Source: Vectrevirus NIC06P3. From it: 45,947 nucleotides of DNA. Shown piece after piece: positions 8,621 through 15,259 of this stretch (within the stretch, counting starts at the first letter, position 1; each line of letters starts with the position of its first letter). The stretch lies in sequence record OZ035778.1; one strand, written 5' to 3'. The notes below the pieces were generated by a model, which did no database searches, was not told where the DNA came from, and saw only the letters and a program-made list of their open reading frames with translations. The translations under genes and the position numbers were made by a program.

Positions 8621-8670
8621 GTAGATTCTTAGTCCTGTACAAGGATTAACCAAAGTCAAAATTTTGATAT

Positions 8671-9590
8671 AGGCGTGTGTGAGCTCTCTCGCCCTCGCCC
8701 TCGCCGGGTTGCCCCCCCCCCCCCCCGCCCCCCCCCGCCGCGCCGGGGGCCGGGGGGGGGGCGGGGGGCGGGGGGGGGGCCGGGCCCGCCGCGCGCCGCC
8801 ACCCGGGAGGAGGCCCCCGCGGCCGTAGACGCGCTGTGCCTGAGCGTCCCCGCCGCGGCCGAGACGGCCCTGCGGCGTCTCCTGGTCGGGGAGGCCGCGG
8901 CGCCTCAGCGCGAGGACGCCGGGTCGACGGCGGCGGCGCCGGCCGGACCGGGCTCCTCCTCGGGCGAGCCCGGCGAGGGCGCGCTCACGGACCAGGCCAG
9001 CCAGAGCCCCAGCGCGTAGAGCGGCAGACCCATCACGAGACGGGCGACGCCCAGGGCCGTCGCCGCGTCCGCGAGGTAGAGCGGCACCTGCACGCCCAGC
9101 CGCAGCGCGAAGACGGCCGCCATCACCCAGGTGGCCGCCGCGTAGGCGCGCCGGCGGCGGGGGTCCGCACGCCATGCGGTCCCCTCCCCGCGCACGAGGC
9201 CGAGGATCAGGCCCACCACGGGCCAGCCCGCGAGGATCGAGACGAGGAACGCGAGGCCGTAGCCGGCGTTCGTGATGAAGCCCCAGAGGTAGTAGTCCCG
9301 GGCCTGCCCCGTGGTCAGGGCCACCGCCACCGAGAGCACGACGACGACGAGCCCGGCCAGGACCTGCGCGGGCGACTGGCGCTGCGCGAGCCGGACCACG
9401 CCCATGAGGACGGCCACGCCCGCGGCGGCCACGCCCGAGGGCCACACCTGCTGGGCCCCCGTGGTTTGGGGGGGTCGTTGTGGTCTGAATCCGCGCGTTT
9501 TCACAATGTAAATTTTTTTTTTTGAGGGGTGGTTGTGCCCGCCCCCCCCGCCCCCCGGGGGGGGCCCCCCCCCCCCCCCCCCCCCCATAT
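8671..9590. other. foreign high-GC block bounded by C/G homopolymer tracts (probable chimeric/artefactual insert)
   Basis: Abrupt composition shift; C16/C8/G10-type runs at 8711-8790 and a C22 run at 9565-9586; T11 run at 9514-9524; minus-strand frame reads like a truncated polytopic membrane protein. Confidence 0.6.
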
Positions 9591-9659
9591 GGGTGGCCTT
9601 GGTGATTGGCTTAGGAATTGGGCTGGGCGGGGCCGTCTTCGACGGGTTGGCTGGGGGGC

Positions 9660-10236
9660 TTGCCTTGTACTATCTTAGTGATACACAAGGGAGGACGCCT
9701 AGGAAGCGCTAGGGCACGCCTTAGTATTGGACAAGGTGATTGCCTTAGTGCAACCACTTTGGGCTTACACAGGCCGTTTTAGGGCCATTCTGGGCTATTG
9801 ACAGGGTGGGCGTGGGTGGGCTATCTGTTCGTTTCGTTCACTCCGCTTGCGCTACGTTCACTCGCTCACGTGTACCTTAGGTTATTGCTTGATGGGTAGC
9901 TTAAGTTAACCTTAGTGGATTGCCTTAGTTAAAGCCTTAGTGCTTCACTTAGTATCAGCTTAGTAGTGTACCTTAGTTGGTCTTAGTTCCTTATCTTAGT
10001 GATTGCACATGCAAGCATATAAGATGCCAATAGGTCGCGGTCGGTAGACCGCTAAAGAAAGAGAATAGTAATAAGATGCAGCAGGAGGAACACCAGAAAC
10101 CTAGCCAACCTAACCTATCCTAGCCTTGTATCTATTGCTTATCCTTAGTCTCACACGTTAGACAACCTAGGTTTATATTAGTAGTTGTGACCTGTATCAC
10201 ATAAATAATCTATCTTAGTGAAACTTAGTGTTGACA
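9660..10236. repeat. array of short CTTAGT(G) repeats in the genome left-end non-coding region
   Basis: At least 15 copies of (C)CTTAGT(G), eight of them within about 100 bp (9900-10010); analogous to the short repeat arrays near T7 termini. Confidence 0.55.
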
Positions 10237-10259
10237 CAGGCAATCAACAGGTGTACATT
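10231..10259 (+). promoter_or_regulatory. host sigma70-like early promoter
   Basis: TTGACA, 17-bp spacer, TACATT. Confidence 0.55.
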
Positions 10260-10410
10260 AGCAATCACTGAGGCGGACCTAGCAAGCTGCCTCAGGTTAT
10301 AAGCAGGAGAATTGATGCGTAAGCCATAGCTAATGGATGTAGTCGCATGAAGGCTTGAGTAAGGGGCCGTTTAATACCTTCTTCCTCTGGAGACAAAGCT
10401 TATAGCACTG

Positions 10411-10424
10411 CTCTTTAACAATTT
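10411..10424 (+). promoter_or_regulatory. conserved early-leader motif CTCTTTAACAATTT (candidate RNase III processing site)
   Basis: Identical 16-mer GCTCTTTAACAATTTG recurs at 11026-11041; resembles my recollection of the T7 R0.3 region (CTCTTTAACAATCTGG). Confidence 0.35.
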
Positions 10425-10741
10425 GCTTAGTGTAACCTATGTATGCCGTGGTTAATTACTTATTGAATGAGGAATTAGCTATGAATTACGAAGAAATGTA
10501 TGAAGCCTACTTCAATGCACTTGATGAAGGAGAAGAAGCATTATCTTTCGCTGAGTTTGTGGAGGCTTTATCATGACATTAAATAACCGTGAGCTATCCG
10601 TTCTCTTCACTCTGTTATGCTACATGATCCGTAACAACGAATTGCTTACAGATGACGAGTTGGCACTATATCACCGCTTTCTGAATGAAGGTTGGACCGA
10701 TACAGTTAACCAGAAACGTGATTTGATTAAGGAGTTAAGCA

Positions 10742-11132: not shown

Positions 11133-11486
11133 ATGGCTATGTCTAACATGACTTACTCTCAGGTTTACAACACTGCTCATGCTGCACTGGTTGAACGCGT
11201 ATGGGATGATGCCATTGATTGTATTGATAACGCACATGATGCAATCCATGAGGTAGCGGATGGTGCTGTACCAGTCTATTATGCTAACATCTTCTCAGTG
11301 ATGGCGAGTGAAGGTATTGATCACTTCTTCGAAGACTCCGGCCTGATGCCAGACACTAAAGATGTGACGGTAGTATTGCAAGCCCGTATCTATGAGCAAC
11401 TTACAATCGACCTGTGGGAATGTGTACAGGATATGATTGATGCGTACATCGACTCAGCCGAATACTCAGAAGAAGAGGAAGAATAA
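11133..11486 (+). CDS. ocr: Ocr (gene 0.3) DNA-mimic anti-restriction protein
   Basis: MAMSNMTY..., [31 protein letters not shown] and [15 protein letters not shown], with acidic EEEEE tail, closely match T7 Ocr as I recall it. Confidence 0.85.
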
Positions 11487-11592
11487 AGATGGAAAAGCAA
11501 TACAACTTTATCTTTTCCGACGGCGTAACCCTGAAGTGTTCCTTGCGATTCGCACAGATTCGCGAGGAAGTGCTAGGCACTACATACAAACT

Positions 11593-11616
11593 ATTTAGCT
11601 GACACTATAAGAGAAG
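11593..11616 (+). promoter_or_regulatory. variant phage promoter (ATTTAGCTGACACTATAAGAGAAG)
   Basis: Three mismatches to the SP6 consensus; strength unknown. Confidence 0.4.
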
Positions 11617-11683
11617 ATTTAACAGGGCGTTACTTGTTAGCGCCCGATTAAGTTTATCTCAATAAACCAAATAGGTGATTATT

Positions 11684-12568
11684 ATGACTACTGAAAACAC
11701 CCTCGTTTCTGTTCGTGAAGCTGCAACCGCTGAGATCAAGCAACACTTAGACAATATCGGCACTTCCTATATCAAGATTGGGGCTTGTCTGAATGAGCTA
11801 CGCGGTGACTTTGAAGGTCAAAAAGAGTTTTTAGCTTATGTAGAAGCTGAATTTGCCATTAAGAAGGCACAATGTTACAAGCTGATGAGTGTTGCCCGTG
11901 TCTTTGAAGGAGATGAACGCTTTAAAGGTGTGGCGATGCGTGTAATGCTGGCTCTTGTTCCTTTCGCTGATGAGAATATCATCATGGAAAAGGCTGCGGA
12001 ACTTGCCGCAGATGGCAAGTTGGACACTAACGCTGTAAACGCCCTGATTGAGCCTAAGAAAGAGACAAAGGCCGAGATGGTACAACCTAAGCCTGCGCCA
12101 GTAAAACCGCAGGAGAACGCGACTGGGGCCGCAGAAACACAGGAAACGCAAGCGCCGCAGGCAGTGCCACCAGTTAGCGAGACAGAGGCTGATGAATCAG
12201 CACCGTGGGAAGAGGAAAGCAAGCCGGAAGCTACAAAGGCCGCGCCACTGGATAACACGGCTAACACTGAGAATGCCGCTATCGCTGGCCTACTGGCACA
12301 GATTAAGGCACTGACTGAGCAACTACAGGCAGCTAATGACCGCATCGCATCTTTGAGCAGTGCACGCGAAAGCAAGAAGGCAGCCGCGCCTATGCTTCCA
12401 CAGTTTAAATCTTCTTGTTTTTACGCTCGCCTAGGGTTGAGCGCTGAGGAAGCAACTAAGAAAACGGCTGTTAACAAAGCTCGCCGCGAATTGGTTAAAC
12501 TGGGATATGGTGAAGGCCATGAGGCATGGGCTTTAATCTCTGAGGCAGTAGAAGAATTAACTAAGTAA
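11684..12568 (+). CDS. hypothetical early protein (N-terminal domain, P/E/A/T-rich linker, C-terminal helical domain)
   Basis: 294-aa ORF with RBS GGTGA; occupies the slot of T7 gene 0.7 but has no kinase motifs. Confidence 0.6.
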   Translation: MTTENTLVSVREAATAEIKQHLDNIGTSYIKIGACLNELRGDFEGQKEFLAYVEAEFAIKKAQCYKLMSVARVFEGDERFKGVAMRVMLALVPFADENIIMEKAAELAADGKLDTNAVNALIEPKKETKAEMVQPKPAPVKPQENATGAAETQETQAPQAVPPVSETEADESAPWEEESKPEATKAAPLDNTANTENAAIAGLLAQIKALTEQLQAANDRIASLSSARESKKAAAPMLPQFKSSCFYARLGLSAEEATKKTAVNKARRELVKLGYGEGHEAWALISEAVEELTK

Positions 12569-12631: not shown

Positions 12632-15259
12632 ATGCAAGATTTACATGCTATCCAGCTTCAATTAGAAGAAGAAATGTTTAACGGTGGCATTCGTCGCTTT
12701 GAAGCAGACCAACAGCGCCAAATTGCATCCGGTAACGAATCCGATACAGCTTGGAATCGCCGCTTATTATCCGAGTTAATCGCGCCAATGGCTGAAGGTA
12801 TTCAGGCTTATAAGGAAGAGTACGAAGGTAAAAGAGGCCGTGCACCGCGTGCATTAGCTTTCATTAACTGTGTAGAAAACGAAGTGGCAGCATATATCAC
12901 GATGAAAATCGTTATGGATATGCTGAACACGGATGTAACCTTGCAAGCGATAGCCATGAATGTAGCGGACCGCATCGAAGACCAAGTCCGCTTTAGCAAG
13001 CTGGAAGGTCACGCCGCAAAATACTTTGAGAAAGTTAAGAAGTCACTTAAGGCAAGTAAGACTAAAGCCTATCGCCATGCGCATAATGTAGCGGTAGTTG
13101 CTGAAAAGTCAGTGGCTGACCGTGACGCAGACTTCTCCCGCTGGGAGGCGTGGCCTAAAGATACCTTGCTGCAAATAGGCACTACCCTGCTTGAAATCTT
13201 AGAGAATAGTGTGTTCTTCAACGGTCAGCCTGTTTTCCTCCGCACCTTGCGCACTAATGGCGGCAAGCATGGCGTTTACTACTTACAGACTAGTGAACAC
13301 GTTGGCGAGTGGATAACTGCATTTAAAGAGCACGTAGCGCAGCTTAGTCCTGCCTATGCGCCTTGCGTTATCCCTCCGCGTCCGTGGGTGTCACCATTTA
13401 ACGGTGGTTTTCACACTGAGAGAGTGGCTAGTCGTATCCGTCTAGTTAAAGGCAACCGCGAGCACGTCCGCAAGCTAACCAAAAAGCAAATGCCAGCGGT
13501 TTACAAGGCTGTTAACGCTTTGCAGGCGACCAAGTGGCAGGTTAATAAGGAAGTGTTGCAGGTTGTTGAGGATGTTATCCGCCTAGACCTTGGTTATGGT
13601 GTGCCTTCCTTTAAGCCACTCATCGACCGCGAGAATAAGCCAGCTAATCCGGTTCCGCTTGAGTTCCAGCACCTGCGCGGTCGTGAACTGAAAGAAATGT
13701 TAACACCGGAACAATGGCAAGCCTTCATCAACTGGAAGGGTGAATGTACTAAGCTGTATACCGCAGAGACTAAGCGTGGCAGTAAGTCGGCGGCAACCGT
13801 TCGCATGGTCGGGCAAGCCCGTAAATACAGCCAGTTTGACGCTATTTATTTTGTATATGCACTGGATAGCCGTTCACGCGTTTATGCGCAATCTAGCACG
13901 CTCTCGCCGCAGTCAAACGACCTAGGCAAGGCATTGCTACGATTTACCGAAGGGCAGCCGCTAAACAGCTCTGAAGCGCTTAAATGGTTTTTGGTGAACG
14001 GGGCAAATAACTGGGGTTGGGATAAGAAAACCTTCGACGTCCGCACCGCTAATGTGCTGGATGGCGAATTTCAGGACATGTGCCGCGATATTGCAGCCGA
14101 TCCTCTGACCTTCACTCAATGGGTAAATGCCGATTCACCTTATGGGTTTCTTGCATGGTGCTTTGAGTACGCTCGCTATTTGGATGCACTGGAGGAAGGC
14201 ACACAAGATCAGTTCATGACACACCTGCCAGTACACCAAGACGGTAGCTGTTCCGGCATTCAGCACTATAGCGCGATGTTACGCGATGAAGTAGGTGCGA
14301 AAGCGGTAAACCTTAAGCCGTCCGATGAGCCGCAAGATATTTATGGGGCCGTTGCGCAAGTAGTTATCCAGAAGAACTATGCTTACATGAATGCAGATGA
14401 TGCAGAGACTTTCACGTCTGGCAGCGTCACCCTTACAGGTGCGGAATTGCGTAGCATGGCTAGCGCGTGGGATATGATAGGAATCACTCGCGGCTTAACC
14501 AAAAAGCCAGTGATGACCTTGCCTTACGGCTCCACCCGCTTAACCTGCCGTGAGTCGGTGATCGATTATATCGTTGATTTAGAAGAAAAAGAGGCACAAA
14601 GAGCTATTGCAGAAGGGCGGACGGCTAACCCTGTTCATCCCTTTGATAATGACCGTAAAGATTACTTAACTCCGGGCGCGGCGTATAACTATATGACCGC
14701 TCTTATCTGGCCTTCAATCTCTGAGGTTGTGAAAGCTCCGATAGTTGCCATGAAGATGATTAGGCAACTTGCACGCTTTGCAGCTAAAAGGAATGAAGGG
14801 TTAGAATACCCTCTGCCTACTGGCTTCATATTGCAACAAAAGATAATGGCTACCGATATGCTCCGCGTATCCACTTGTTTGATGGGTGAAATCAAGATGA
14901 GTCTACAGATTGAAACCGATGTGGTGGATGAAACGGCAATGATGGGTGCGGCTGCTCCTAACTTTGTGCATGGTCATGATGCTAGTCACCTTATCCTGAC
15001 TGTATGTGACCTCGTGGATAAAGGTATTACATCCATTGCAGTTATTCATGACTCTTTCGGCACTCATGCAGGACGTACCGCAGACTTGCGTGACAGCTTA
15101 AGGGCAGAAATGGTTAAGATGTATCAAAACCATAATGCCTTGCAAAACCTGCTGGATGTGCACGAAGAACGTTGGTTAGTAGACACCGGAATCCAAGTAC
15201 CCGAGCAAGGGGCGTTTGACCTTAACGAAATCTTAATATCTGACTATTGCTTCGCATAA
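12632..15259 (+). CDS. single-subunit DNA-dependent RNA polymerase, SP6-like
   Basis: 875 aa; near-colinear with the SP6 RNA polymerase as I recall it ([32 protein letters not shown]..., [15 protein letters not shown], ... FA C-terminus). Confidence 0.97.

Follow-up and report, generated by a model that had tools for sequence, protein, structure and literature searches.

The gene analyzed here lies in the circularly permuted genome of a K1E/SP6-like podophage, Vectrevirus NIC06P3 (sequence record OZ035778.1), whose 45,947 nucleotides, taken as a whole, are called the window below and show 88-90% identity (megablast) to Escherichia phages of the genus Vectrevirus. It runs on the plus strand from an ATG at 11684 to a TAA at 12566-12568 and codes for 294 amino acids (Table 1). 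The protein is 66% identical over its full length to gp7 of phage SP6 (NP_853567.1) and matches phrog_4571, a group of "unknown function", over residues 1-294; judged from its sequence, it is the ortholog of SP6 gp7 and belongs to the PHROG 4571 group, and we will refer to it as gp7, although in the GenBank records of K1-5 and SP6 (AY370674 and AY370673) the ortholog appears as gene 6. As an earlier, sequence-only reading of this DNA had stated, the gene is located between ocr and the RNA polymerase gene, with an Ocr homolog upstream and an SP6-type RNA polymerase downstream. The same reading called it unannotated, which must be corrected, as many records already list the gene as a hypothetical protein (SP6 gp7, NP_853567.1, for instance). 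What holds is that no function is assigned to it, either in PHROG 4571 or in the other sources searched. In fact, the literature searched contained nothing relevant on the function of SP6 gp7, PHROG 4571 or DUF3102 (a domain to which we return below), and the paper describing Vibrio phage phi-A318 calls the function of its gp7 homolog unidentified. In a few records the ortholog bears the name of an endolysin (or 'andolysin'), of a 'periplasmatic protein' or of a prolipoprotein diacylglyceryl transferase (e.g., MN384978, NC_047807, OQ729742, OQ291025), and neither the sequence nor the structural model gave any support to these names.

Table 1. Position of gp7, its parts and its neighbors in the window (aa, residues of the gp7 protein)
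Feature	Position	Strand	Basis or remark
Ocr homolog, upstream of the gp7 ortholog	11136-11486		Pfam ocr, E 4e-41
Phage (SP6-type) promoter-like site	11593-11613	+	ATTTAGCTGACACTATAAGAG, compared with the window's own consensus
Long stem-loop in the 5' leader of gp7	11610-11660	+	core hairpin 11625-11645
Shine-Dalgarno AGGTGA	11673-11678	+	5 nt 5' of the ATG, from sequence
CDS, ortholog of SP6 gp7 / PHROG 4571	11684-12568	+	phrog_4571, E 9e-129
Predicted N-terminal six-helix domain, aa 10-122 (DUF3102, ParB/KorB-type HTH fold)	11711-12049	+	
Disordered acidic Pro/Ala/Thr-rich tether, aa 123-195	12050-12268	+	pLDDT about 50
Linker motif EADESAPWEEE, aa 168-178	12185-12217	+	acidic run, P, F/W, D/E
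Amphipathic helix, aa 196-230, zipper-like heptads	12269-12373	+	DSSP, pLDDT
Predicted C-terminal J-like domain, aa 235-294	12386-12565	+	helix I preceded by P-x-L-P-Q-F (aa 236-241)
Loop L273-A281 (LGYGEGHEA), where J domains have the HPD loop	12500-12526	+	HMMER and MAFFT alignments
SP6-type RNA polymerase gene (875 aa), downstream of the gp7 ortholog	12632-15259		

Other open reading frames were noted around the gene. A 37-aa ORF (11490-11603; MEKQYNFIFSDGVTLKCSLRFAQIREEVLGTTYKLFS) lies between ocr and gp7, and its 3' end overlaps the promoter-like site. Two minus-strand ORFs that overlap gp7 (11831-12151 and 11875-12375) were treated as chance occurrences, because all the called genes of the region are on the plus strand and the homologs keep the plus-strand frame. 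Further upstream, the stretch 8670-9600 (about 0.9 kb) has a GC content of 57-65% and long poly-C/poly-G flanks, is located at the genome-end junction, is missing in related phages and contains a minus-strand ORF (8905-9588) matching DUF3159 (Pfam E 1e-50). This stretch looks like foreign DNA, derived from a chimeric assembly or a library artefact, and not like phage sequence.

The promoter-like site in front of gp7 agrees from -17 to -1 with the consensus of the window, ATTTAC(T/C)GGACACTATAGAAG, and carries an A instead of a G at +1. An equivalent element is present in SP6 at 2111, in front of gp6-gp7-RNAP. The leader that follows is predicted to be strongly folded (-25 kcal/mol for 11610-11690; z = -5.0 versus shuffles). 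As there is no T-run after the hairpin, it is not a terminator; it may act in RNase III-type processing or in stabilisation, ahead of gp7 and the RNA polymerase gene. These observations bear on the early timing that had been assigned to the gene: it does lie in the early region, but, with the 37-aa ORF and the promoter-like site standing between it and ocr, it is probably not expressed as a purely early gene. The host RNA polymerase probably transcribes gp7 from the early promoters, and the phage enzyme then does so again.

The gene had also been described as occupying the slot of T7 gene 0.7 while coding for no kinase. The second statement stands, as BLASTP produced no significant alignment between the window protein and the T7 gp0.7 kinase, and no kinase family was matched; a kinase activity of gp7 can be discarded on the grounds of sequence and fold. 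The first is true of position and of nothing else, since phi-A318 has both genes, in the order gp7 homolog, T7 gp0.7 kinase homolog (39% identity to T7 gp0.7, E 5e-33) and RNA polymerase gene. Thus, the two are coexisting genes and not alternatives. When T7 proteins were searched for with tblastn, homologs of gp0.3, 1, 1.1, 1.7, 4 and 5 were present in the window, and none were found there for gp0.4, 0.7, 1.2, 2, 3.5, 5.5, 5.7 and 5.9. As their T7 counterparts are not found, the takeover proteins of Vectrevirus NIC06P3 are largely unassigned.

Homologs of gp7 are numerous. A set of 5.8 billion proteins contained 333 of them, and tblastn against a phage collection returned 205-213 matching records (213 phage records with a homolog, at least 80% of the protein being covered in each; the examples listed are 42.5-48 kb long), whose names point to Escherichia, Salmonella, Klebsiella, Proteus, Erwinia, Pectobacterium, Pseudomonas, Vibrio and related hosts. 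When 1.84 billion cluster representatives were searched exhaustively with HMMER, only 132 clusters were matched, and a profile-based homolog search again recovered mainly close relatives. Among 121 close relatives, the share of non-consensus residues rises from 1.6% in the C-terminal domain to 3.0% in the N-terminal one and 10.2% in the linker. This domain-wise constraint, together with the 333 homologs and 213 phage records, shows that the ORF is a real gene. Its position is also maintained, as it lies upstream of a phage RNA polymerase gene in the window, in SP6, in phi-A318 and in the metagenomic contigs L006 and L007. A distant relative of 512 aa, on a 47-kb contig, precedes the genes for RNA polymerase, primase-helicase and DNA polymerase. 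Some members, this relative among them, are longer, with 70-250 extra N-terminal residues that have no Pfam match. These long forms appear, from the sequences compared, to be confined to metagenomic contigs, as no isolated phage was matched over the extension. Relatives with such extensions were noted on the contigs L005 (116-547), L006 (1560-2096) and L007 (2967-4505). In L005 and L006 the gene upstream of the gp7 relative codes for an S-AdoMet lyase (T3-type anti-restriction) and is not ocr; the RNA polymerase gene lies downstream in L006. Overall, gp7 belongs to the small number of early genes kept across the whole SP6-like group.

When the window protein alone was compared with Pfam, NCBIfam, PDB sequences and PADLOC, the searches returned coiled-coil noise or nothing. 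The architecture was approached through the family, with an alignment of 126 diverse members (the query and 125 relatives) on which an AlphaFold2 model was built. The model bears out the three modules proposed in the sequence-only reading, namely an N-terminal domain, a P/E/A/T/Q-rich linker and a helical C-terminal domain. Residues 10-122 form six helices with pLDDT above 90, residues 125-195 are disordered and residues 240-294 form a compact domain with pLDDT of 92-98. No significant match was found in the PDB for the whole model (Foldseek), and ParB-family entries were enriched among the weak ones. No housekeeping or structural family emerged as a clear homolog; what appeared instead was remote homology to two known folds, the DUF3102/ParB-type HTH and the J domain, a combination that suggests a DNA-associated adaptor with a conserved partner.

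The tether is the most variable segment of gp7 among the 121 close relatives, and its composition (A13 E12 P10 T8 K7 Q5) gives a net charge of -7 over 71 residues. Within it, P174 is invariant in those relatives. This residue belongs to an acidic-P-[FW]-[DE] motif that is present in 41 of the 126 family members, for instance as EDEDDIPFDVD in P0129. The motif resembles the C-terminal tip of SSB, DDDIPF, and the Asp that follows P-[FW] might substitute for the terminal carboxylate of SSB, both points being resemblance only. The helix that follows the tether was delimited by DSSP and has a pLDDT of about 92 over residues 201-220. Its conserved hydrophobic positions (L203, L210 and 217) are seven residues apart, and the model suggests that it is probably a dimerisation element, the oligomeric state of gp7 being deduced from this helix.

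The N-terminal domain was identified through relatives. The window protein has no match to PF11300 (DUF3102) at E values up to 1; 41 of the 126 family members match this family at the equivalent place, with a best E of 1.3e-8, and some exceed its 24.4-bit cut-off (e.g., P0165, at 26.7 bits). Additionally, a Foldseek search of viral models (BFVD) retrieved DUF3102 proteins at E 3.8e-4. We regard residues 10-122 as a probable DUF3102 domain, an assignment that draws on transitive homology and on the predicted fold. This fold appears to be that of the ParB/KorB-superfamily HTH DNA-binding domains, the transcriptional repressors KorB and VirB being its best structural matches. These matches have moderate scores, and the helical domain of Raf1 scores similarly. 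The helices 46-57 and 61-74 follow the HTH pattern, and K61, Q63, K69 and R86 are conserved polar residues of the domain. The domain is acidic (pI 4.8, net charge -6), which is unusual among DNA-binding domains. No Pfam match to a ParBc or ParB-Srx-type CTP-binding (CTPase) domain was found in the window protein or in the 126 aligned members, and tblastn of the N-terminal domain against plasmids produced no match.

The C-terminal domain was also recognized through the family, as the Pfam DnaJ model (PF00226) does not match the window protein. When the family profile was compared with the PDB sequence set, about 30 J-domain chains were retrieved (best E 1.5e-4), and 13 of the 126 relatives match PF00226 at the corresponding place with E values of 0.01 or lower (best E 1e-5), the best score, 26.0 bits, being below the gathering cut-off of 27.8 bits. 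In the AlphaFold2 model, this region appears to adopt the J-domain fold, with the helix II/helix III hairpin and a short helix I, and the J signature LGL...KAYRxLxK...EAFxxLxxA is retained in the family. DnaJ contacts the nucleotide-binding domain and the linker of DnaK through Y25, K26, H33, D35 and F47 (PMC13012618), and some of these positions have equivalents in the HMMER alignment. Position 267, aligned with Y25, is Y or F in 72% of the members (R in the window protein); R268, aligned with K26, keeps R or K in 87%; and at position 282, aligned with F47, 51% have an aromatic residue, W in the case of the window protein.

By contrast with a canonical J domain, the HPD tripeptide is replaced. 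Both HMMER and MAFFT align it with Y275-G276-E277 of the window protein, and the other clades show NPD, TPE, KPE, TAA or NAK in this column. The HPD-His column lacks histidine in all 126 aligned sequences, and the position equivalent to P34 is rarely P. The distant member P0251 has an FHPD nearby, in a place where the alignment is unreliable. Helix IV of the J domain is also absent from the AlphaFold2 model. As HPD has become YGE, the His is missing and helix IV is absent, alignment and model concur in that the C-terminal domain is J-like and not a canonical J domain. In canonical J domains, loss of the HPD His abolishes the functional interaction with Hsp70, and an H-to-Q change alone is inactivating (PMC3486835). 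The replaced loop is itself strongly conserved: LGYGEGHEA and most of the J-like domain are invariant in the 121 close relatives, and GYG-x-GHE is kept in phages whose proteins are only 35-40% identical overall to that of the window, Vibrio and Pseudomonas phages among them. The P-x-L-P-Q-F stretch before helix I is family-specific and is the most conserved part of gp7. As far as we have found, no core early phage gene that joins a DUF3102 HTH to an HPD-less J-like domain has been described.

The reading that we prefer, with a probability of roughly 0.35, is that gp7 is a non-enzymatic, probably dimeric, DNA-tethered adaptor whose pseudo-J domain docks a conserved partner, DnaK being the prime candidate. 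According to this model, gp7 would be made at the start of infection and probably also once the phage RNA polymerase is active. Its HTH heads would hold it on DNA, most plausibly on the incoming phage genome, and the helix 196-230 would dimerise it, while the pseudo-J domain would dock a partner conserved across gamma-proteobacterial hosts or across phages, perhaps with the help of the tether and its acidic P-[FW]-[DE] motif. That there is a conserved partner is argued by the invariant loop and by the persistence of GYG-x-GHE at 35-40% identity. By homology, the prime candidate would be the J-site of the host Hsp70, DnaK, since the contact residues of helices II and III are partly retained. 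There are precedents, as the phage J-protein Rki acts on DnaK (PMC3486835) and CbpA of E. coli is a DNA-binding J-protein (PMC4063869). With neither His nor Pro at the HPD position, binding without triggering ATP hydrolysis would be expected, and the pseudo-J domain would sequester, block or relocate its partner and not act as a co-chaperone. However, as the loss of the HPD His abolishes the interaction between J domains and Hsp70, the partner may not be DnaK at all. Regarding a dependence of SP6 on chaperones, nothing relevant was found in the literature searched, and a Salmonella RB-TnSeq study that included SP6 does not mention them.

A conserved, operator-like palindrome was also sought as a DNA target for gp7, and no candidate site emerged. 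The left end of the genome carries an array of CTTAGT(G) (9674-10426), with 15 copies, of which eight recur about every 12 bp (9911-9995). This CTTAGT array also occurs in SP6 (260-569), and it was not seen in the left-end stretches of phi-A318 and of two metagenomic relatives. T7, which lacks gp7, has an analogous array, with 11 copies of CCTAAAG at its left end. As the array is not family-wide and T7 has its own analog, it lends no support to a gp7 site.

The alternative that survives best, which we nevertheless consider unlikely, is that gp7 is a KorB-like regulator. Its HTH would act on phage operators or host promoters, in an early-to-middle switch or in host shut-off, and the J-like domain and the tether would contact the host or phage RNA polymerase instead of a chaperone. 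The structural similarity of the N-terminal domain to the KorB and VirB repressors would be explained in this way, and the gene directly precedes that of the RNA polymerase and follows a phage-type promoter, an arrangement that suggests that the two are expressed together. Additionally, homologs of T7 gp0.7, gp2, gp3.5 and gp5.7 are not detectable in the window, so that no protein is assigned to host shut-off or to the regulation of RNA polymerase in this phage. Against it, the search for an operator-like palindrome or another conserved target was negative, the N-terminal domain is acidic, and we know of no link between J-like domains and RNA polymerase.

Rather more doubtful is the possibility, raised in the sequence-only reading, of a host-takeover or anti-defence effector, here understood as one with no role on DNA, whose folded domains would bind protein and whose tether would be a decoy. 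This would agree with an early gene that adjoins the anti-restriction gene ocr and that, in metagenomic relatives, has an S-AdoMet lyase gene as neighbor, as well as with the acidity of the tether and with the Raf1-type helical similarity, by which the N-terminal fold is seen not to be exclusive to DNA binders. However, anti-defence genes usually have a patchy distribution, and gp7 is conserved nearly universally, and over its full length, in SP6-like phages of many host genera, a pattern that, on the sequences available, is more in keeping with a core function than with an anti-defence gene particular to some strains. PADLOC had no match for the window protein, and over its 71 residues the tether has a net charge of just -7.

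Our adaptor model can be extended to a more specific proposal, which we regard as improbable as a whole. In it, gp7 would be a virus-encoded effector whose ParB-type HTH holds an HPD-less J domain on the entering phage DNA. There, it would occupy the J-site of DnaK or, in the manner of Tim16 with Tim14, pair with J proteins of the host, so that the Hsp70 system is switched off or relocated; alternatively, it would supply the host shut-off or RNA polymerase control that is missing from SP6-like phages, in which gp0.7, gp2, gp3.5 and gp5.7 of T7 have no homologs. If true, this would be a new viral way of addressing the Hsp70 system. In any case, the proposed assignment of a ParB-type HTH and an HPD-less J-like domain would turn a hypothetical protein into a testable idea of its role, in a group of phages that includes the source of the SP6 RNA polymerase, widely used in the laboratory, and K1-capsule and Klebsiella phages employed in therapy work.

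The chances are slimmer still for gp7 as an organiser of replication or recombination. In SSB of E. coli and in T7 gp2.5, contacts with the replisome are made through acidic tails that end in Phe, and the P-[FW]-[DE] motif of a gp7 bound to phage DNA could mimic the SSB tip internally, recruiting or blocking the proteins that bind this tip, or engaging the phage replisome. Its occurrence in 41 of the 126 members (including DDIPFD in P0129) and the invariance of P174 in close relatives would be accounted for. However, two thirds of the family lack the motif, recognition of the SSB tip normally requires a free C-terminal carboxylate, and what links the two is a resemblance.

A canonical J co-chaperone that stimulates the ATPase of DnaK has a phage precedent in Rki of phage RB43 (PMC3486835) and would explain the J-domain fold and the helix II/III signature. 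It is, however, very improbable, as YGE stands in place of HPD, His is found in 0 of the 126 aligned members, the H-to-Q change by itself inactivates J domains (PMC3486835) and helix IV is missing. Finally, the idea that gp7 replaces the kinase or shut-off function of T7 gp0.7, which has its position in favor, is barely conceivable for a protein with no sequence similarity to gp0.7 and no kinase family match, whose homolog coexists with a true 0.7 homolog in phi-A318.

Comparison with known systems helps to delimit what is particular to gp7. SP6 gp7 shares with the window gene the same slot between ocr and the RNA polymerase gene, and there is no substantial difference between them. T7 gp0.7 is likewise coded just upstream of the RNA polymerase gene and has no homology to gp7. 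The similarity to the DNA-binding domains of KorB, ParB, SopB and VirB is one of fold, with a sequence identity of a mere 10-15% to the N-terminal domain of gp7. No ParB N-terminal CTPase domain was found in gp7 with Pfam, its DNA binding is a prediction and the domain concerned is acidic.

Regarding the combination of modules, E. coli CbpA and the large T antigen of polyomaviruses also join a J domain to DNA binding, through parts that are unrelated to DUF3102. Both keep the HPD and act through stimulation of the Hsp70 ATPase. An HPD-less J-like protein is known in Tim16/Pam16, whose partner at the import motor of mitochondria is a true J protein. Beyond the J fold there is no sequence relationship between Tim16 and gp7, and, unlike in Tim16, the J-like domain of gp7 lacks helix IV and is joined to an HTH within a single phage protein. 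The closest parallel among phages is Rki of RB43, which, like gp7, is a phage-encoded J fold and whose target is the host DnaK (PMC3486835). By contrast with the YGE of gp7, a functional J domain has been reported for Rki, with H38Q in its HPD as the inactive control (PMC3486835), and Rki, unlike gp7, is devoid of a DNA-binding-type domain.
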